64,000 bases of DNA from Patescibacteria group bacterium (GCA_022709565.1 JAKLIO010000001.1:4368-68367); one strand, 5' to 3'; shown: positions 14,950 through 55,232, counted from the stretch's first letter. Translations and numbers: made by a program. Notes: generated from the sequence alone by a model not told the origin.

Positions 14950-16218
14950 TCACTTTATTAGCAAACTTTCTCGATATTGTTCCGCTGGAGCATTCTTGAC
15001 CATATCAATAACTTTATCATAATTTTCTTTTACAACTTTTTCTATCTCATTTATATCTGCTCGAAAAAATTCTTTCCTATTATTCAGCTTATTGATTCTA
15101 TTGTTGTAAAAATGTTGATGTATTTTCGCTTCAAGCTCAGGTGCATTATCTGAAAATATCATAGCATGTATATCAAAAGTAAATGGAACAGAAGCGTCAC
15201 CAAGCTCATCTATTCTATCAGTAGGCTCAAGTCTTCTGGTCATACCAATCTTATATACACCCTCCCCAAATGCGCCAATATTAGAAATAATATACACATA
15301 CCCAGCCTTAGCGTTTTGTTCCCGATAATCAATGACTTTTTCCTCTTTTTCAAGTTCTCCAAGCTGTTCTCTGATTTCTCGCATTCTCTCCTGAATAATT
15401 TTTTTCTCAACTTCATCAATAACATTTTTATATCTTTCTTCTAATCCCTTTAACGCTGTTGAAAAGTGCTTTTTTTCTTTTGCTATTTTTTCTCTTGCTT
15501 CTTTAATCTCTTGTTCTAGCTTTTGTTGTTCGCGCAACTCCTCGCGTATTTTTTTCTGTTCCTCTCTTTCTTCTTGTTTCTTTTGCTGATACTCATATGC
15601 AAGATATAGTTCTTCAAGCTTACAATCTTTATAGTCATAACTTATGGAAACTTGCATGATTGCTCCAATCTTATTTAAAGACTCATACGATTGCTCGATT
15701 CTTTTCACGCTTCTCTCGATATTATTGAATTTGACATTATCAACGCAGTAGTCGCATTCATTATTGAATGACCGCAATACCAGCTTAATCATATCATTGA
15801 CCATTTTCTTGCCTTGAGTTCTGTTGTTATTTACTGTCCAGTTTTGATTTCCATTGGCTGCAATACCTGATTTTATTAGTTGTTTTTGCTTATCTCGAAT
15901 TATCTCTAATCTTTTTTTATATTCATCACTAGAAGTAAAGTTAAATTTTGGTTTATAGAGCGCAAAGTCTTCAAGCATTAACTCTTCCTCTAATACAATA
16001 ATTTGGGATTTCTTTTCATCTATTGAGCTTGTGAGATTTTCTTGTTCTTTCTTGAGTTGTTCATTATTCGCAATTAAACTATCCTTGTCTTTTGCTAATT
16101 CATCAATCTTTCGTTGTATCGCTATTGCATCACCTGCGCCCATTTGAGTTATCAATGATTGCAATTTTTCATTCTCCTTTTTTATTTTCGAGGCGTTTAA
16201 AACATCAAGAATTCCCAT
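14950..16218 (-). CDS. DUF4041-type protein with a C-terminal T5orf172/MUG113 (GIY-YIG-like) domain
   Basis: Has a long coiled-coil region, then GYVYIISN..GEGVYKIGMTRRLEPTDRIDELGDASVPFTFDIHAMIFS..A.ELE..IH..F...R.N..N.RKEFF. The family was recognised from memory, not searched. Confidence 0.75.
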   Translation of the reverse strand: MGILDVLNASKIKKENEKLQSLITQMGAGDAIAIQRKIDELAKDKDSLIANNEQLKKEQENLTSSIDEKKSQIIVLEEELMLEDFALYKPKFNFTSSDEYKKRLEIIRDKQKQLIKSGIAANGNQNWTVNNNRTQGKKMVNDMIKLVLRSFNNECDYCVDNVKFNNIERSVKRIEQSYESLNKIGAIMQVSISYDYKDCKLEELYLAYEYQQKKQEEREEQKKIREELREQQKLEQEIKEAREKIAKEKKHFSTALKGLEERYKNVIDEVEKKIIQERMREIREQLGELEKEEKVIDYREQNAKAGYVYIISNIGAFGEGVYKIGMTRRLEPTDRIDELGDASVPFTFDIHAMIFSDNAPELEAKIHQHFYNNRINKLNNRKEFFRADINEIEKVVKENYDKVIDMVKNAPAEQYRESLLIK

Positions 16219-19835: not shown

Positions 19836-19884
19836 TTTTATCTCTTAATTCCGCTAAGTTATGAATATCTAAATATTGAATATT

Positions 19885-30357: not shown

Positions 30358-32319
30358 TTATACTTCGATTACTACTGGTAAAACCATCGGTCGTCTTTCT
30401 GTTTTAGTAAACAAGAACGATCCGACAGATTCACGGATATTATTCTTCACATAATCCCAATTGACCGGCAAACCTTCGGAAGTTTTTTCTTTGACCACCT
30501 TTTCCACCACCCGCTTTGTCGCATTCACCAAATCAAAATTTTCTTTGACGAAAATAAATCCGCGCGACGTGATTTGCGGCGTACCGATAATTTTTTTGGT
30601 TTTGGAATCTATAATAACGACAATCGTAAACATTCCGTCCTTAGCCAAAAGCTGTCTGTCTCTCAGCACCACTTCACCAACGTCGCCCACGCCCAATCCG
30701 TCTACCATGACATAAGCCGTGTCCACTTTGTTTGGCAAAATCTTGGCTTTGTTTTCATGGACCTCCAATTGATGGCCATTGTCCAAAACAAAAATATTTT
30801 CTTTGCGAATGCCGACTTTTTCTCCCAGTTTGGCCGCTTCTTTGAGCATATAGTGATTGCCATAGACCGGCAGAAAGAAATCAGGCTTGATCTGACGCAA
30901 GATATCTTGAATATCATTAGCGTTGCTATGTCCGCTGGTATGGACATCCAAAATATCAGAATGGATAACATTATCGCACTTGCGATAGAGATCATCTTTC
31001 AGCCTTTGCACAGTGCGTTCATTGCCTGGAACAATCGACGAAGAAAATATGATTGTGTCATCTTTTTGGATTCGCACAAAGCGATGTTCGTCATTGACGA
31101 TGCGCGACAACACAGCATTGCCTTCGCCCTGCGCGCCGGTGCAAATCACCACCACTTTATTTCTCGGATGTTTTTGAATCTCATTAACTGAAATCAGAGT
31201 CTTTTTATGCGCTTTGATATAGCCCAATTCCTTGGCAATTTCGATATTCATTTTCATGCTATATCCATCCAGTGCCACTTTCTTGCCAATACTTTCCACG
31301 TATTCGATAATTTTTCCAATACGCTCGATTTGTGAAGAAAATGTGCCGATAATAACCAGTCCCGTGGCTGAGCTGATAAGTTCGTTCAAGTTTTTATACA
31401 TTTCCGATTCCGGTTTGTCGGCCGATTCATTGTCCGTCGCACCCAAGCTTTCTAGCATAAGTATCCGCGGTGAAGGCAGTTTCGACAAATGATCATAGGT
31501 GACCATTTTATGATTCGGATTCTTGTCCATCGTCCAGTCACCGGGATGGATTATTGTTCCGTCCGGAGTTCTAATAATAACACCGACTGCATCCATCACA
31601 GAATGCTCCACTTCAAAAAATTCAATTTCAAATTTTCCCAGTTTGACTTTGTCAGAGACGGAATTGACTCTGATGATTTTCAAATTTTGCGCTGAATTTT
31701 TGTCGAAGTCTTCCATCTTTTTCTTGACCAAGGCCAATGTCAAATCACGTCCGACAATCGGTGGATAGCCGAGTTCTTTGAGCAAGATCGGAGCCGCTCC
31801 AATATGATCGAGATGTCCATGGCTCAAAAGAACTCCGCGGACATTTTTTTCCTTGCCTTTCAGATAACTCATATTTGGAATAATATAATCTATTCCCGGC
31901 ATGTCTTCTTCTGGAAACTGAATGCCCATATCTAAGATTATGATGTCGGAGTCATATTCAAACATGGTCATATTGCGACCAACTTCCTCATTTCCTCCCA
32001 TCGGGGTTATGCGCAGATTTTTGCTGACCACATTCCCCTGAGACTTCTGAGTCCTTGTGTTATTGCTGATATTAATCCTCCTGCCAATATTCTGGCTAGG
32101 ACGCCTGCTTGGAGCATTACGCCGTGAAGGCTGGCCGGAATGCTGGCTAACATTTTTGGAAGGTTTTTCCATCCTGACATGATAGGCTTTTTGCTCTATC
32201 ATCTTGCCCAATTGTTTTAGCGGCTTTTTGAACGCAGCCGCTTGCCTGTTGCCTACCTGTCTAGCAGGCAAAGGGTTCGCGTTGGCAGCCATCTGGCCGC
32301 CTTGTTTTTTGTTAAACAT
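30358..32319 (-). CDS. rnj: ribonuclease J (with a ~100-aa basic N-terminal extension)
   Basis: Has the metallo-beta-lactamase motif LLSHGHLDHIG, beta-CASP features and HTSGH. Confidence 0.9.
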   Translation of the reverse strand: MFNKKQGGQMAANANPLPARQVGNRQAAAFKKPLKQLGKMIEQKAYHVRMEKPSKNVSQHSGQPSRRNAPSRRPSQNIGRRINISNNTRTQKSQGNVVSKNLRITPMGGNEEVGRNMTMFEYDSDIIILDMGIQFPEEDMPGIDYIIPNMSYLKGKEKNVRGVLLSHGHLDHIGAAPILLKELGYPPIVGRDLTLALVKKKMEDFDKNSAQNLKIIRVNSVSDKVKLGKFEIEFFEVEHSVMDAVGVIIRTPDGTIIHPGDWTMDKNPNHKMVTYDHLSKLPSPRILMLESLGATDNESADKPESEMYKNLNELISSATGLVIIGTFSSQIERIGKIIEYVESIGKKVALDGYSMKMNIEIAKELGYIKAHKKTLISVNEIQKHPRNKVVVICTGAQGEGNAVLSRIVNDEHRFVRIQKDDTIIFSSSIVPGNERTVQRLKDDLYRKCDNVIHSDILDVHTSGHSNANDIQDILRQIKPDFFLPVYGNHYMLKEAAKLGEKVGIRKENIFVLDNGHQLEVHENKAKILPNKVDTAYVMVDGLGVGDVGEVVLRDRQLLAKDGMFTIVVIIDSKTKKIIGTPQITSRGFIFVKENFDLVNATKRVVEKVVKEKTSEGLPVNWDYVKNNIRESVGSFLFTKTERRPMVLPVVIEV

Positions 32320-47678: not shown

Positions 47679-48251
47679 TCATAGGGGAACTTTTTTAAAT
47701 TTTCTTTTTCCTTTCTGCAGTTCAATTCCCATTTCTGCCGGAATGATGGCAAAAATTTCCGCCTGATCAATGGAAAGATTCTTGAGTTTCTTAATTTTAT
47801 CCGGATCTTTAAGGATCTCCGTTTTGTCGACCGCTTCCTTGGTGCGGATAAAATCTAAAAGTCCCTGGCGCTTGAGCTCAGCTATGGCCGCTTCCTCATC
47901 TTCCACGATGACTGACGGGGGCGGAAAATACCATCGGATCTTATCGCCAGCCATAAACTCAACCGTTTTTTTCTTTTCGTTTTCAGTCAGCTCTTCACGA
48001 TGTCCTTGAGCAAAAATAAATATTCCTGCCGCCAGCCTGTCAATCTCCTCTTCGAGGGGCTTAGCCTTACCTTGGGCATCCTTTTTTATTTCATTGATCT
48101 CATCTTCATGCCTCTTTATTTTCTTTGAAGCTTCTTCACCGATTGATCTTATCTTTTGCTCCGCCTCGCGGACTTGGGCTGCAAATTGCTCCAGTTCAGG
48201 TCTGTCCTTAGGCACACTTGCTACTTTTTTCTTCACGGTTTCCTTTTTCAT
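47679..48251 (-). CDS. Mu Gam-like host-nuclease inhibitor family protein
   Basis: Has a coiled-coil N-terminus, then ..FAQGHREELTENEKKKTVEFMAGDKIRWYFPPPSV.V.DEEAAIAELKRQGLLDFIRTKE.VDK..I. Recognised from memory of the Gam family. Confidence 0.5.
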   Translation of the reverse strand: MKKETVKKKVASVPKDRPELEQFAAQVREAEQKIRSIGEEASKKIKRHEDEINEIKKDAQGKAKPLEEEIDRLAAGIFIFAQGHREELTENEKKKTVEFMAGDKIRWYFPPPSVIVEDEEAAIAELKRQGLLDFIRTKEAVDKTEILKDPDKIKKLKNLSIDQAEIFAIIPAEMGIELQKGKRKFKKVPL

Positions 48252-49119: not shown

Positions 49120-49824
49120 TCACCTCCTGTCTTGTATTTCCTGTACAGCCAGATTGACTGCGTAAGGTAAAACCCTGTGCTCATGTTTCAGGACAAATTT
49201 CTGCACCTTTTCTGCTGATTCCTTCAATGGAACTTTTTTGGAAATGTAGTCTGCAATAATCTCCGTCGGGATTTTCACTGGATACTGCAAAAAAATTCTT
49301 CCTTCGTCCCATTTTTCGGTTATTTCATGAATCGTAATCTTTGCATAGAACGGATCGGTCACTTCTTTTCGTCCTCGATAAACCAAGTCGCCCACTTCAT
49401 GGATAAGAAAGTTTTTATGAGGTCCCAGCCCGACCATATTGCGACCCCCGTGAGCAATAGTGCACTGTGGATGAATGTTCAGCATCAAGACACCGGGGAT
49501 AATAGGCAGCTTGTACTTGCACCCGAGTGCAAAAAGCAGATCTGCCTTCATGCTGATGACCATAGCCTCAACCTCATCTTCAAATGTTAGAAAATGATTC
49601 AATCTGAATCCCTTGGTATACCCTTCATAATTAATTTCCCAGACATTTTCATACCCGAGCGCTCTTGCTCTTCTCGCCCCTTCCAGTCCAAGCGCCGTGG
49701 CGATAATCCCAGCGATTTCAGCGTCTGGGATTAGTGATGACTTATGCGCATTAAGAACTGCTCCATTATCCGAACCTGTTCCGGAAAGAATAGTTACTAT
49801 GCGTACTGGTTTTGTCATAAACAT
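49120..49824 (-). CDS. formyltransferase-fold protein (divergent PurN-like)
   Basis: Has ..VTILSGTGSDNGAV.. and ..MLNIHP.. blocks, and sits next to purD. It is divergent, so the call is tentative. Confidence 0.5.
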   Translation of the reverse strand: MFMTKPVRIVTILSGTGSDNGAVLNAHKSSLIPDAEIAGIIATALGLEGARRARALGYENVWEINYEGYTKGFRLNHFLTFEDEVEAMVISMKADLLFALGCKYKLPIIPGVLMLNIHPQCTIAHGGRNMVGLGPHKNFLIHEVGDLVYRGRKEVTDPFYAKITIHEITEKWDEGRIFLQYPVKIPTEIIADYISKKVPLKESAEKVQKFVLKHEHRVLPYAVNLAVQEIQDRR

Positions 49825-49858
49825 GAATCTCCTTTCTCAATCTCGTTTATACGGTTTT

Positions 49859-51211
49859 TTATGCGGCCGCTCTATTGATTGCCTTTTTGGCAATATCCGT
49901 CCGATAGTGCATTCCATCGAAATGAATCATGCCAACCGCCTCATAGACTTTTTCTATTGCTCCAGTAAAATCACCTGGGAAATCTCCCTTGGCTGTCACA
50001 TAGAGCACCCGTCCACCGTTTGTAATCAGCTCGCCTTTTTTATTGCGCTTCACTCCAGCGAAAGATATAATGGCACCGGTTTTTTCGGCGTCTTCAATGC
50101 CAGTTATAACATCACCCTTCCTGGGTTTTCCGACAGAATATCCTTCGGCTGTAAGCGCAACTGTAACTGCTGGAACATCATCCCACTCGATTTTAAACTT
50201 ATCGAGAGCACCATCAAGTGCGGCCATGATCAGCTCGGCGAAATCAGATTTCATTCTCGCCAAGATCGGCTGCGTTTCCGGATCGCCTGAGCGCACATTG
50301 AACTCCAGCACGTTGATTTTTCCGTCTTTTATCATAAGGCCGATGTACAGGAAACCGGTAAACGGACATTTCTCTTTTTTCATTCCGTTTATTACCTTAC
50401 GAACAATTCTGCGCACCTTTTTTTCCACTGCATCGGTGACAACCGGAGCGGGAGAATATGCTCCCATACCTCCAGTATTGCGTTTAGGCCTTGGACCATC
50501 ATAATCATCATTTTCGCTTAACTTATGATCCTGCGAAGATGCAAGAGAAATAAAGTTTCCATTCTTGTCGATAATGACGATATAGGAAGCTTCTTCACCT
50601 TTAAGACAATCTTCAATGATGATTTTTCCGTTCCCCGCCTCTCCGAATTTTCCTGCCAGTATGTCATCTAGGAATTCAATAGCGGCAACCAGATCATAAC
50701 AAACTCTGACGCCTTTGCCGGCCGCCAGTCCGTCCATTTTGATAACCAGGGGGAATTTTTTAGGCTTCCCAAATTCAGTGAGTGTGCCGGAAAAATAATC
50801 TTTGGCTTTGACAGCATTTTCCAGAACTATAAAGGGAGCTGTCGGAATTTTATGTCTTTTCATAAACTCTTTGGCCCGAACCTTCGAGCCCTCCAATCTT
50901 GCCGCCGCTCCTTTCGGGCCTAAACTATTAAGACCCGCTGCTTCAAAATCATCGCTGGCACCAAGAACCAAGGGGTCCTCTGGACCGGCAACGATACAGC
51001 CAACGTCATTTTCAAGAGCAAAGTTTCTGAGCCCTAAGACGTTTTTTGCTGTTATGTCGCTGATGGGTGTTGTTTTTGGTATTCGCCCCATTTCATCATT
51101 TCCCGGAGCACAATAAATTTTGTCCACCAGCGGTGACTGCGCTAACTTTCCCACCATTGAATATTCCCTGCCGCCACTTCCTATCACTAAAATACGTTTA
51201 CGTTCTTTCAT
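49859..51211 (-). CDS. purD: phosphoribosylamine--glycine ligase (PurD)
   Basis: Has ILVIGSGGREYSM, CAPGN, NTGGMGAYSPAPV, EFNVRSGDPETQ, and the C-terminal YRTDIA. Confidence 0.88.
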   Translation of the reverse strand: MKERKRILVIGSGGREYSMVGKLAQSPLVDKIYCAPGNDEMGRIPKTTPISDITAKNVLGLRNFALENDVGCIVAGPEDPLVLGASDDFEAAGLNSLGPKGAAARLEGSKVRAKEFMKRHKIPTAPFIVLENAVKAKDYFSGTLTEFGKPKKFPLVIKMDGLAAGKGVRVCYDLVAAIEFLDDILAGKFGEAGNGKIIIEDCLKGEEASYIVIIDKNGNFISLASSQDHKLSENDDYDGPRPKRNTGGMGAYSPAPVVTDAVEKKVRRIVRKVINGMKKEKCPFTGFLYIGLMIKDGKINVLEFNVRSGDPETQPILARMKSDFAELIMAALDGALDKFKIEWDDVPAVTVALTAEGYSVGKPRKGDVITGIEDAEKTGAIISFAGVKRNKKGELITNGGRVLYVTAKGDFPGDFTGAIEKVYEAVGMIHFDGMHYRTDIAKKAINRAAA

Positions 51212-51298
51212 GCCATCACCCTTTTCCTTTCTTTTTGATATTTTTTTGACTAATTTTATAAGTACTCTTTATTTAATATCTACTAAATAAAGTTTTTT

Positions 51299-51327
51299 AT
51301 CATAGCAACTGGGCTATAAAAATGCAA
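51299..51327 (-). promoter_or_regulatory. putative promoter of purD
   Basis: The minus strand reads TTGCAT-N17-TATGAT, followed by AAAAAACTTTATT and a leader hairpin. Confidence 0.55.
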
Positions 51328-51345
51328 ATAACAAATTCTGGGAAT

Positions 51346-51382
51346 TGAAAAGTGGCTAATCTAATAATACAGATTAGCCACT
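51346..51382 (-). terminator. rho-independent terminator after the purD paralogue
   Basis: A 12-bp stem AAGTGGCTAATCT/AGATTAGCCACTT is followed by TTTC. Confidence 0.7.
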
Positions 51383-51446
51383 TAACACGTGAGATTTTTC
51401 TCATTTACTACTGGTAAATTGCTCTGTCGCCAATATCCTTTTGATA

Positions 51447-52721
51447 TTATTGACCACAGAATAAGATCTTTTCGAGAGCTTCACAGGCCTTTTTCCTTGC
51501 GCCCAGGTAATCTCCGGGGAAATTACCTTTATGTGTAACACTGAGTACTTTTTCTCCCGCTGTTATAAGGTTGCCGGATTCATTAAGAGCCACTCCAGCA
51601 AAAGACACAATAGCACCGGTTTTTTCGGCATCCTTAATGCCTAAAATTTCGTCTCCCTTTATGAGAGTACCCGGATACCCTTCGGCCGCCGCCACAAAAC
51701 AAACTGCCGGAACATCATCCCAACGAATCGTGCATGTATCAAGCTTGCCCTCGATAGCTGCCGAGATCAAAGTCAAAAAGCTTGTTTTCATTCTGGCCAT
51801 TATAGGTGGAGTATCCAAGTCGCCCAAACACACATTAAGCTCCAGCACGTTGAGTTCTTCATCTTTGATCATCAGACCGAGGTTTAGAAATCCAAAAAAT
51901 GGATTCTCTTCTTCTCTCATACCTTTAATCACTTTGCGGACAATATCGTGGATCTCTTCTTCCGCAACTGCGGTAACAACTGGAGCCGGAGAATAGGCGC
52001 CCATGCCGCCAGTGTTGAATCCGACATCTCCGTTGCCAATCCGCTTGTTATTTTGTGAAGATGCCAGTGGAATGAAATTTCCTTTCTTGTCCACCAAGAC
52101 ACTATAGGAAGCTTTCTCGCCCAGTAGGTAATCCTCCAGCAGAAGGCTGTCGTTGGCATTTCCGAATTTACCTGACCTTATTTCTTCAAGAAACTCGAGG
52201 GCAGATTGCAGATCATTGCAAACCCTGACACCCTTGCCGACAGCCAGTCCATCCATTTTCAAGACCAGCGGAAATTTCGTGGACTTCTTTTCGGCCGTTT
52301 TTTTCAACAATTCAATGGCCTCATCGGCATTGGCAAAAACATTAAACGGCGCTGTTGGAATATCGTGCCTGCCCATAAAATGCTTAGCAAGAGTTTTTGA
52401 TCCTCCTGCCAGCTTGGCAGCTTTTTCTCTTGACCCGAATATCGGAAGTTTTGCATTTTCGAAAGCATCGACGATGCCATTGAACTGTGGCTCCTCCGAA
52501 CCAACAATGGTCACCTCTATTTCCTGCTCCTTGGCAAATTTCAGAAGTGCCGGAATATCGTTGGCTTTAATGTCAATGCATTCCGCCCCCGGGATCAGAC
52601 GCATACCCGCATTGCCTGGAGCGCAAAAGATAGTACAAACAATTGGAGATTTTGCTATCATCCAAGCCATTTCGTACTCTCTTACTCCATCCCCGATAAC
52701 CAAAACTTGAATTGGATCCAT
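51447..52721 (-). CDS. PurD paralogue with altered conserved motifs
   Basis: About 50% identical by eye to purD. GDGVREYEM replaces GSGGREY, LNVCLGDLDT replaces FNVRSGDPET, and the C-terminal YRTDIA block is absent. I place the start at ATG 52721. Confidence 0.75.
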   Translation of the reverse strand: MDPIQVLVIGDGVREYEMAWMIAKSPIVCTIFCAPGNAGMRLIPGAECIDIKANDIPALLKFAKEQEIEVTIVGSEEPQFNGIVDAFENAKLPIFGSREKAAKLAGGSKTLAKHFMGRHDIPTAPFNVFANADEAIELLKKTAEKKSTKFPLVLKMDGLAVGKGVRVCNDLQSALEFLEEIRSGKFGNANDSLLLEDYLLGEKASYSVLVDKKGNFIPLASSQNNKRIGNGDVGFNTGGMGAYSPAPVVTAVAEEEIHDIVRKVIKGMREEENPFFGFLNLGLMIKDEELNVLELNVCLGDLDTPPIMARMKTSFLTLISAAIEGKLDTCTIRWDDVPAVCFVAAAEGYPGTLIKGDEILGIKDAEKTGAIVSFAGVALNESGNLITAGEKVLSVTHKGNFPGDYLGARKKACEALEKILFCGQ

Positions 52722-52797
52722 AACCCTCTCTTTCCTTTCTTTTTGAAGTATTTTTTGTAGGTACCCCTTATTCAATCGCTATTGAATAAAGTTTTTT

Positions 52798-52826
52798 ATT
52801 ATATCAGACAAATTTACAAAATGCAA
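52798..52826 (-). promoter_or_regulatory. putative promoter of the purD paralogue
   Basis: The minus strand reads TTGCAT-N17-TATAAT, followed by AAAAAACTTTATT and a leader hairpin. Confidence 0.6.
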
Positions 52827-52869
52827 GATCTAAAAAACCAGCCCTTCTGGAGCCGGTTTATGATATCAA

Positions 52870-53373
52870 CTAAGCTGCGTTTAGCCTATCTTTTCTCTTT
52901 TTATACCAAAAGATAGCATAGAGAATAATCAAAATAGCTACGTTCGGGAAAAATATTATTGGGTTTCCCCACCCGATGCCATTGACCATAAAATCAGAAA
53001 CTGGCCAGAGAAAAGGCGTTGGAAAAAAATCGAAAGAATGGCTGGGAATGTCGATGAGAATATGCAATCCCCAAGCTCCCAACAGCCAGTATGGTTTTTT
53101 CCTGAAAAACCAAACGAGACAGAAAATAACGGCGAACACAATCAAGCTATGTGTGATGTTGTATAGAATATGCACATACTGCGGAACTAAACCTTGATCC
53201 ATATGCCCACCCGCAAAATTCACATTGGAAAAGCCCAGCATTCTGGCAACCATAAAAATTCCAAAAGAAAAAGCATCAGGAGCAAGTCCGATAAGAAAAG
53301 ATATGATATAATTTTTACGGTTTTTTCGGCCGAAAGCAATTCCACCCCAAAGCCCGTGAGAAATAACGTCCAT
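52870..53373 (-). CDS. membrane-bound metal-dependent hydrolase family protein (YdjM/DUF457-like)
   Basis: Starts MDVISHGLWGG, is polytopic, and has conserved His residues (..THSL.., ..IPSHS..). Confidence 0.55.
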   Translation of the reverse strand: MDVISHGLWGGIAFGRKNRKNYIISFLIGLAPDAFSFGIFMVARMLGFSNVNFAGGHMDQGLVPQYVHILYNITHSLIVFAVIFCLVWFFRKKPYWLLGAWGLHILIDIPSHSFDFFPTPFLWPVSDFMVNGIGWGNPIIFFPNVAILIILYAIFWYKKRKDRLNAA

Positions 53374-53964: not shown

Positions 53965-54513
53965 ATGAACATATTGGCGACCAACAAAAGCGCATCTTTT
54001 GACTACGAGCTTCTGGATAAATATGAGGCCGGTTTGGTGCTGACCGGAGCCGAAGTAAAATCCATAAAAACAGGACATATAAGCCTTAAAGGCAGTTTTG
54101 TGACCCTGCACAGCGGAGAACTCTATCTTACTAATGCTAACATCTCGCCCTATCCTTTCGCCAAAAGTTCTGCTGCCTATGAACCGACCCGCTCCCGCAA
54201 GCTTTTGGTCCGCAAAATTGAAATTCGCCATTTAATAGGCAAATTGCAGGTTAAAGGCTTGACATTAGTGCCCCTTCGTGTGTATACTAAGAAACGATCC
54301 ACCCGCTACATTTCCCAAGCGAGTTTATCAACTAATACAAAATTTTCAGCTGCCGGCAATAAAACTAGTAACTCAAACAGACGTAGCGAAATGGACGGGC
54401 TAATCAAGTTGGAATTTGCTTTGGCAAAAGGAAAAAAGGCCTATGACAAACGCAAAGATATTTCCAAAAAAGAGTCAAAACGCAAAATTGAAAGAGCAAT
54501 AAAAAATAATTAA
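53965..54513 (+). CDS. smpB: SsrA-binding protein SmpB (with a ~33-aa in-frame insertion)
   Basis: Has NKSASFDYELLDKYEAGLVLTGAEVKS, ..TRSRKLL.. and ..ALAKGKKAYDKR... The tmRNA gene follows directly. Confidence 0.9.
   Translation: MNILATNKSASFDYELLDKYEAGLVLTGAEVKSIKTGHISLKGSFVTLHSGELYLTNANISPYPFAKSSAAYEPTRSRKLLVRKIEIRHLIGKLQVKGLTLVPLRVYTKKRSTRYISQASLSTNTKFSAAGNKTSNSNRRSEMDGLIKLEFALAKGKKAYDKRKDISKKESKRKIERAIKNN
54296..54402 (+). repeat. hairpin-flanked insertion, in frame within smpB
   Basis: CCCG cta CATTTC (54302-54314) is complementary to GAAATG ga CGGG (54388-54399). The insert encodes KRSTRYISQASLSTNTKFSAAGNKTSNSNRRSEMDG. Confidence 0.55.
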
Positions 54514-54580: not shown

Positions 54581-54984
54581 GGGGTTGTTTAGTTTCGACA
54601 GGTTGTACTTTTCAAAATATGCAAGTCGATCAACCATGTTTATATCGTAAAACTAACATGGAAGATATAAGTGCAAACTTCATATCAAAGGCGCGGGCTT
54701 CATTTGCGCAAGCATTTGCAAGTTTTGCTCCTGCTTTAGCTTAAGTTAAAGCCATCGAACCGCTAATTTCTCATAAGCGGACTTCGGTGCCAAACATGAG
54801 AATAGTTTTCTGCGGTTTTCCGGACGCATAAAGCGAAAAATTTCTGGAAACGACGTATGCAGGTTTTGTTTGTTCCTGACTGCATGTTGTTGAATCCCGA
54901 TTTTATCGGGAAAGAAACAAACTAAACTTGTAGAGGATTTTGAATTGTCAATTTTGGACGCGAGTGCAATTCTCGCCAACTCCA
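54581..54984 (+). ncRNA. ssrA: tmRNA (SsrA)
   Basis: The 5' end GGGGTTGTTTAGTTTCGACAGG pairs with the 3' end CAACTCC-A and includes the G3:U70 pair. The T arm is GCGAG TGCAATT CTCGC. The tag ORF GCA AAC..GCT TAA (54673-54744) encodes ANFISKARASFAQAFASFAPALA. Confidence 0.85.
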
Positions 54985-55232
54985 CACCTGAAAAATTTTA
55001 AAAGCTAAATTTTAAATTTTAATTGAATTTTAAATGATTTAATCCATTAAAACATTTAATCATTAAGATTTGATTTAAAATTTTAAATTTAAAACTTAAA
55101 ATTATTATCAGTATTTGTTTAATAAAATATAAAAAAATCACAAAGCGTTTTTTAAAAACTCTAATGTGATTTTACAAAGTTATAAGAAAGCGATTTAAGT
55201 TTAAGCCAAAACAACCAACAGGTCCTGCTCAA

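Follow-up and report, generated by a model that had tools for sequence, protein, structure and literature searches.

The locus described here lies in a 64,000-nt stretch of DNA (the window) from a Patescibacteria group bacterium (GCA_022709565.1, JAKLIO010000001.1:4368-68367), which is Candidatus Moranbacteria by public record names. It carries two genes of the purD type, called A and B, each behind its own promoter and leader hairpin, and a gene for a PurN-like protein. With a probability of about 0.7, the locus consists of one working glycinamide ribonucleotide (GAR) synthetase gene, B, and a redundant resident copy, A, that is decaying after its displacement. The first-pass annotation of this DNA had described a tandem duplication of a purD unit whose upstream copy had lost conserved motifs. 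Its statements on the sequence itself held: two purD-like genes stand on the minus strand, each behind a promoter and a leader hairpin, the context of the ribosome-binding site (RBS) is similar in both units, and a divergent PurN-like gene follows B. A and B were 54% identical over 429 aligned positions. A strong intrinsic terminator (-22.6 kcal/mol, z = -8.4), whose stem is kept in the related contig L001 by a compensatory pair, lies between A and the second promoter, so that the two purD genes are transcribed separately. B is separated from the PurN-like gene by 34 nt and is probably co-transcribed with it. All features are listed in Table 1.

The product of A contains the Pfam domains GARS_N (4.9e-28), GARS_A (2.8e-50) and GARS_C (2.3e-12) and scored 362 bits against TIGR00877, for which the equivalog cutoff is 288; this score shows PurD descent, not activity. 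Residues were mapped on human GARS, with the human sequence checked against PDB 2qk4, and residue roles were taken from work on human GARS (PMC2978367) and Geobacillus PurD (PMC8880213). The site set comprised human E104, E197, D217, K219, R292, D295, E297 and R385 and the B-loop GLAAGK, and A does not keep this set. In A, E104 (Mg/ATP) is replaced by Ala next to a one-codon insertion, E197 (ATP ribose) by Lys, D217 (glycine) by Asn, R292 (glycine and acyl-phosphate) by Cys, E297 (glycine) by Asp and R385 (glycine moiety of GAR) by Lys, and the B-loop (ATP gamma-phosphate) reads GLAVGK. The altered sites are all kept in 11 other aligned sequences, including B, the orthologue A' of contig L001 and B9, the copy of B in contig L009. 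The Mg ligands E294 and N296 and the ATP lysines K109, K155 and K226 were retained in A, while structural Gly/Pro positions were also altered and the inserted codon falls in the LEGSK motif. Among 22 PurD proteins including A, deviations at near-invariant columns numbered 23/105 in A, 2/101 in A', 6/103 in B and 0-10 in the others. The claim that the upstream paralogue had lost conserved, catalytically relevant PurD positions was thereby upheld.

At the level of motifs, A carries GDGVREY and ELNVCLGDLDT and stops before the YRxDI block, as had been noticed. DNA alignment with the L001 orthologue showed that the stop is a CAA to TAA nonsense mutation that removed YRxDI. The old tail can still be read in frame after this TAA as YQKDIGDRAIYQ, followed by a second new stop (CAG to TAG) and then by the original TAA, and the remnant beyond the open reading frame (ORF) reads YQKDIG where the YRxDI(G/A) block is expected. 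Both nonsense mutations are confined to the final 18 codons; the gene has no frameshift, and its two indels preserve the reading frame. The closest relatives of A, P0001 (A', 78%) and P0002 (62%), keep GSGxRE, LEGSK, GLAAGK, GEEAS, SSQDHK, EFNVRLGDPETQP, GGRVL and YRTDIA; on the aligned sequences, the motif losses are private to A of this one species. A thus lacks two defining PurD features, the catalytic residues and the C-terminal block, and is predicted to have lost enzyme activity; it should not be filed as a functional GAR synthetase. The NCBI records HRY28209.1 and HSA08590.1, which correspond to A, are named 'phosphoribosylamine--glycine ligase' despite the six lost substrate-binding residues and the lost C-terminal motif, which is probably over-annotation. 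A TTG start at 52775 was ruled out for A, as the ATG at 52721 has an RBS and aligns with the orthologue.

The 92 differences between A and A' were polarised with six outgroups, and alignment columns were classed by conservation (>=90%, 60-90% and <60%; column shares 133/115/175). On the A branch, 48 changes were split 20/13/15 over the high, middle and low classes, matching the column shares. On the A' branch, 25 changes were split 1/2/22, avoiding conserved columns, and the contrast between the two branches in conserved columns was significant (Fisher p = 7e-4). Pairwise dN/dS (non-synonymous over synonymous divergence) was 0.35 for A and A', 0.09 for the upstream YdjM-like gene and 0.18 for the PurN-like gene. 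By our own estimate from branch and dN/dS counts, the A branch carries about 34 excess non-synonymous changes, the number that neutral drift of A would give over roughly the time since B and B9 separated (0.034 x 978 sites). The pattern is compatible with neutral decay of A and does not prove it. A bears marks of a decaying pseudogene, namely lineage-specific loss of invariant residues with a canonical orthologue and substitutions regardless of conservation.

B scored 415 bits against the same TIGR00877 cutoff and contains GARS_N, GARS_A and GARS_C. As the first-pass annotation had stated, it keeps GSGGREY, EFNVRSGDPETQ and YRTDIA. Every mapped ATP-, Mg-, glycine- and phosphoribosylamine-site residue is kept as well, and its 6/103 deviations are within the range of other PurD proteins. 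By architecture, equivalog score, catalytic residues and C-terminal block, B is predicted to be an ordinary PurD member, and only B appears credible as the enzyme.

In a bootstrapped neighbour-joining tree, A and A' grouped together at 100%, and the clade of A, A' and P0002 also received 100%, with B outside. B paired with P0003 at 71%, which is weak, and a clade of A and B received 0%. The six purD genes that carry the leader described below formed one clade (99%). The proposed tandem duplication of the purD unit found no support in this tree, nor in the structure of L001, in which leader 2 stands directly before the PurN-like gene with no B; A and B as recent tandem duplicates are not supported by these alignments.

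Three states of the locus were observed directly. L001 has YdjM, promoter 1 with hairpin 1, intact A', the terminator, promoter 2 with hairpin 2 and the PurN-like gene, and B is absent. The window and contigs L003-L008 have A plus B. L009 has the end of YdjM, promoter 1, a hybrid hairpin, the rest of leader 2, B9 and the PurN-like gene, and A is absent. Because A is intact where B is absent and decaying or gone where B is present, the simplest reading is displacement by an incoming purD.

The lateral similarity of B is likewise visible directly. B and B9 were 97.6% identical in amino acids and 97.7% in nucleotides, while the adjacent PurN-like gene was 85% identical. The flanks of L009 are L001-like, with PurN-like genes about 93% identical in nucleotides. 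dS was 0.068 for B and B9, 0.47 and 0.44 for the PurN-like gene of the window against those of L009 and L001, respectively, and 0.34 for A and A'. Since the dS of B and B9 is far below that of the flanks, B crossed between lineages long after their split. Compared with L009, the junctions of the B cassette lie in the hairpin (~51283) and in the spacer between B and the PurN-like gene (~49837-49828). GC content and GC at third codon positions of B were those of A and the neighbours, and no compositional sign of foreign origin was found. The identity of the PurN-like gene between the window and L001 or L009 swings from 73% to 96% in 150-nt windows, which suggests that this gene is itself a recombination mosaic.

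From these states we infer the following order of events. The ancestor of this Moranbacteria lineage would have had YdjM, promoter-leader 1 with purD (A), the terminator, and promoter-leader 2 with the purN-like gene. A second purD (B), stemming from another branch within this small clade, would have been inserted between leader 2 and the purN-like gene. With B supplying the activity, A would have been freed from selection and would have collected substitutions regardless of conservation, among them those at six substrate- or Mg/ATP-binding residues and at Gly/Pro positions, together with the LEGSK insertion and the two nonsense mutations that removed YRxDI. In L009, A would have been removed by recombination between the repeated leaders, which would have left B behind promoter 1 with a hybrid hairpin.

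The promoter-leader element itself was conserved. TTGCAT-N17-TATRAT precedes both genes, and these are exactly two matches in 64 kb, where 0.06 were expected. Both promoters are followed by AAAAAACTTTATT and then by a hairpin that has a loop of 4 nt and appears in the minimum-energy fold. The complementary-arm hairpins of the earlier description were confirmed, with the correction that each stem is 11 bp long when G-U pairs are counted, not 9 bp. The leader is shared by the two units and, in one of the checks proposed with the annotation, was also found in relatives: the same arrangement (TTGCAT-N17-TATNAT, an A-rich run, a CTTTRT... hairpin, then AGAGTNCTNAT) stands upstream of purD in L002 (P0002), L011 (P0003) and L088 (P0005), whose proteins are 52-68% identical to A'. 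It was not found upstream of the more distant P0006 and P0007. A covariance model (R1) was built for the leader and eleven loci were searched. In the window, leader 1 scored 65.1 bits (E = 6.5e-13) and leader 2 66.7 bits (E = 2.6e-13), the next best match scoring 15.9 bits; across the eleven loci, matches occurred only upstream of purD or PurN-like genes. A promoter scan reported promoter 2 in a shifted register and missed promoter 1, because TTGCAT matches only 3/6 positions of TTGACA; the promoter calls rest on conservation. The proposed Rfam scan of the leaders returned no match at gathering thresholds, nor at E <= 1 over 51150..52900, and the Rfam purD motif and riboswitches of the purine, ZTP and PRPP types were likewise unmatched at E <= 1. 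A metagenome scan with the pattern RATAAAAAACTTTATTYARTAG gave 30 matches, none with promoter, hairpin or purD context, and all were due to chance.

In the seven natural copies, 97.3% of hairpin cells pair, compared with 37-63% in slid controls. Two stem pairs change on both sides, one from T-A to C-G and one from C-G to T-A through T-G. In L011 one pair is gone from both arms, and in L088 the stem is three pairs longer around a larger loop. Listed by eye from the alignments, the imperfect pairs in natural copies are G-U on the sense strand, except for a 1-nt bulge in L088. This covariation gives the hairpin moderate support. Weighing against it, the covariation comes from seven sequences and 19/500 shuffles reach the observed score; a shuffle test on the first five hairpins was not significant (331/500), and whole-leader folding z-scores were weak (-1.8 to +0.7).

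Taken together, the leader, a cis-element that is conserved in this clade and belongs specifically to its purD and purN-like genes, extends from the -35 box through the 5'-proximal hairpin to the AGAGTNCTTAT block, and it would give both units common control. We favour a role as a 5'-terminal RNA stem-loop because the hairpin, which has no U-run and leaves the RBS uncovered, begins some 7 nt downstream of the -10 box. At the extreme 5' end predicted for the transcript, such a hairpin would most likely be an mRNA stabiliser against 5'-end-dependent decay or a regulator-binding site. The hairpins do not fit an attenuator or intrinsic terminator: the stems are AT-rich, GGGGTACC or AGAGTACT follows with no T-run, and the hairpins were unlisted in the terminator scan. 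The recombinant leader of L009 (122..172) combines the 5' arm of hairpin 1 with the loop and 3' arm of hairpin 2, giving a C-A mismatch; its predicted fold weakens from about -8 to -4 kcal/mol. This leader amounts to a naturally arisen mutant of the element with one arm altered. The window also encodes RNase J (30358..32319, minus strand) with beta-CASP and C-terminal domains, which is relevant to the idea of protection by a 5' hairpin.

As a serious though less probable alternative, the inverted repeat after the -10 box could be a DNA operator bound by a dimeric repressor such as a purine-responsive regulator. The near-perfect palindrome sits directly downstream of the -10 box in the classic repressor position, conservation extends beyond pairing to the sequence of the stem (CTTTATT...AATAAAG), the element stands only before purD and purN-like genes, and the weak folding z-scores of the whole leader also fit an operator. 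However, the imperfect positions are G-U on the sense strand and A-C on the other strand, and two positions change on both sides with pairing kept. Furthermore, an operator of fixed spacing would not easily tolerate the loss of a pair in both arms in L011 or the three added pairs in L088.

For the two purD genes, the strongest competitor of displacement is an ancient tandem, which we nevertheless regard as doubtful. Promoter, leader and purD would have been duplicated in the clade ancestor, after which L001 lost B, L009 lost A and the window is losing A by point mutation. Such a duplication would directly explain why the homology of the leaders reaches from the -35 box as far as the RBS, a 7-nt GAAAGGA repeat flanking B could mediate its precise deletion, and all six leader-bearing purD genes fall in one clade. 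However, with B outside the clade of A, A' and P0002, the tandem must predate P0002, persist for long and turn redundant three times independently, and P0002, P0003 and P0005 are single purD genes in their own contigs. The low dS of B and B9, against about 0.45 in the flanks, indicates recent movement of B between lineages in any case. An ancient tandem with three independent losses is less parsimonious than displacement.

Several points weigh against displacement followed by decay of A. A keeps an open frame of 424 codons, an intact promoter and RBS and only in-frame indels, and it passes TIGR00877. In a point-mutation simulation, the probability of no internal stop in A after 35-60 amino-acid changes was 0.07-0.23, so some selection for the open frame may be left. 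The pairwise dN/dS of A is 0.35, not 1, so that constraint can have been relaxed only recently or only in part. The searches yielded no donor of B above 59% identity, and among GTDB representatives nothing was closer than 47%. The order of events is drawn by parsimony from only three short contigs, and B might instead be ancestral and lost in L001.

The open frame, the low probability of escaping an internal stop under drift, the retained promoter, RBS and in-frame indels, the fold-level signature and the kept Mg ligands and ATP lysines would also suit the proposal of the first-pass annotation that A has become an ATP-grasp ligase with a new function or is kept, catalytically dead, as a partner or regulator of B. 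We consider this unlikely. The altered residues occur in one species only and the 78% orthologue is fully canonical, the changes are spread evenly over conserved and variable columns instead of being focused on the pocket, and structural Gly/Pro positions were struck. Two nonsense mutations left a ghost tail, A' is intact without B, and A is dispensable in L009, where it was deleted and B stands alone. These observations point to relaxed selection and not to a new function, although A may have a residual non-catalytic role. It is similarly improbable that A is retained as an open, expressed, dead PurD-fold pseudoenzyme, acting on B as a partner or regulator or binding a purine intermediate, and co-regulated with B through a leader that would be a new class of cis-regulatory RNA in Patescibacteria. 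An artefact of sequencing, assembly or chimeric binning as the source of the degenerate A, for which only the general risk of metagenome-assembled sequence speaks, has next to no probability, since six contigs, each from a different sample (ENA and JGI), agree at every nucleotide of A and B, which excludes an assembly artefact, and protein A is also in NCBI under two accessions.

Table 1. Features of the purD locus in the window and copies of the PurN-like gene in related contigs.
Feature	Position	Strand	Remarks
Terminator hairpin and T-run of the upstream YdjM-like gene	52831..52858	minus	5' limit of unit 1; -13.1 kcal/mol, z = -3.3 by folding; kept in L001 and L009
Promoter 1, TTGCAT-N17-TATAAT	52798..52826	minus	predicted; same hexamers and spacing in L001, L009, L011 and L088
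Leader motif 1: A-run, 11-bp hairpin (52766..52791), then GGGGTACCTAC	52747..52797	minus	covariance model and fold
Gene A, degenerate purD, probable resident copy	51447..52721	minus	ATG start, 424 aa
Ghost C-terminal coding remnant of A	51405..51446	minus	in-frame translation; DNA alignment with the L001 orthologue
Intrinsic terminator 3' of A	51347..51383	minus	14-bp stem and UUUU; between units 1 and 2
Promoter 2, TTGCAT-N17-TATGAT	51299..51327	minus	predicted; orthologous promoter before the PurN-like gene in L001
Leader motif 2: A-run, 11-bp hairpin (51267..51292), then AGAGTACTTAT	51248..51298	minus	covariance model and fold
Gene B, intact purD, probable laterally moving copy	49859..51211	minus	450 aa
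Spacer between B and the PurN-like gene, with GAAAGGAG RBS	49825..49858	minus	right-hand recombination junction; mismatch map against L009
Divergent PurN-like gene, formyltransferase fold	49120..49824	minus	234 aa
PurN-like copy in L001	2260..2913		
PurN-like copy in L009	1602..2309		
PurN-like copy in L010	314..1021		

The PurN-like protein scored 26.7 bits against Pfam Formyl_trans_N (cutoff 26.1) and 31.5 bits against TIGR00639 (cutoff 150.1). Its structure matches to PurN were weak, and where the catalytic Asn-His-Asp of PurN was looked for, the NIHP motif and HE..WDEG block align weakly to PurN structures. A search of 5.8 billion proteins, able to pick up only relatives that share exact words of 5 residues, found just three clusters, and no relative was found among 185,579 species genomes (GTDB representatives); the protein belongs to a very small and very rare family. 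The gene directly follows purD in the window and L009, whereas in L001 it follows A' across the terminator and the second leader, and in L010 the gene upstream of it is not a purD. A different PurN-like protein of 257-258 aa follows purD in L011 and L088, and the copy in L011 is about 23% identical. No purine-pathway genes beyond these three were seen among the 26 larger ORFs scanned with Pfam, in line with the first-pass annotation for the ORFs covered; about twenty ORFs of at least 180 aa and all smaller ORFs were outside that scan, and the statement does not extend to them. In the more distant L091 (345..7272), YqeY, a GATase-domain gene, purD, Formyl_trans_N and FGAR-AT (purL) stand in a row, and part of this CPR (candidate phyla radiation) group therefore keeps a larger purine-pathway block. 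P0002 and P0003 lie directly downstream of YqeY and P0007 with one gene between, an arrangement from which the window differs.

Some neighbouring genes were recorded as well. The window encodes a DUF4041/T5orf172 protein (14950..16218, minus strand), a large serine recombinase (19876..21465, plus strand) adjoining a tRNA gene (21346..21432) and a Mu Gam-like protein (47679..48251, minus strand), which are signs of mobile or phage-derived DNA. SmpB (53965..54513, plus strand) lies directly upstream of the tmRNA gene (54581..54987, plus strand, 136 bits), an ordinary pairing. Strains with identical purD loci differ in their downstream content, as a comparison of L004 (12003..16081) with L003 (16921..20070) showed: an MmeI-type restriction-modification gene and a 454-aa ORF in one, an acetyltransferase, peptidase U32 and a NIF3-like gene in the other.

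Public records name both A and B phosphoribosylamine--glycine ligase; a metabolic reconstruction of this CPR genome should include a single purD, not two. Near relatives show the resident alone, both genes with the resident decaying, and the newcomer alone, with the duplicated promoter-leader as a recombination site; such gene turnover has rarely been documented in streamlined CPR genomes. The purD/purN-like leader is a candidate regulatory element with no Rfam match in a group for which almost nothing is known on gene regulation. With purD paired to a very rare PurN-like gene and no further pur genes seen close by, one may ask what purpose the two steps have in such organisms. The conserved leader and the rare PurN-like family are the parts most worth following up, and the paralogue itself is of lesser interest.

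Xenologous or paralogous displacement followed by pseudogenisation of the resident copy is a known kind of event in bacterial genome evolution, here unusually well documented in three states. As in such cases, a non-sister second copy adjoins a resident with relaxed constraint, nonsense mutations and a ghost tail, and related genomes carry either copy alone. In contrast, all three stages are found here in near relatives, and the removal of A in L009 would have used the duplicated promoter-leader, leaving a hybrid hairpin. Compared with bacterial PurD (GAR synthetase, EC 6.3.4.13; TIGR00877; 1GSO, 2YS6 and 2QK4), A and B share the GARS_N/A/C architecture; A differs in the changed E104, E197, D217, R292, E297, R385 and B-loop and in the missing YRxDI, while B has two lineage-specific insertions, TEFGKPKK and DYDGPRPKR. 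The PurN-like protein resembles PurN GAR transformylase in an SGxGSN-type N-terminal loop, the NIHP motif and the HE..DEG block, and it follows purD as purN does in L091; unlike PurN, it is below the TIGR00639 cutoff, has few relatives and carries different insertions.

Organisms with RNase J have 5'-terminal stem-loops that stabilise mRNA, such as the B. subtilis aprE and ermC leaders. The hairpin described here is similarly placed at or a few nt from the predicted 5' end, in a window that encodes RNase J. Stabilisers of the aprE and ermC type are not conserved in sequence or specific to a pathway, whereas here conservation covers both the stem sequence and the block 3' of it, and the element occurs only with purD and purN-like genes. 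The closest conceptual precedent is the purD RNA motif of epsilon-proteobacteria, a conserved structured element upstream of purD with covariation, inferred cis-regulation and no known ligand (Weinberg et al. 2007, PMC1950547). Both elements lie upstream of purD and show covariation. Unlike the epsilon-proteobacterial motif, the leader of the Moranbacteria locus is a single short hairpin after the -10 box, which also stands before a PurN-like gene and occurs in a small Moranbacteria clade only.

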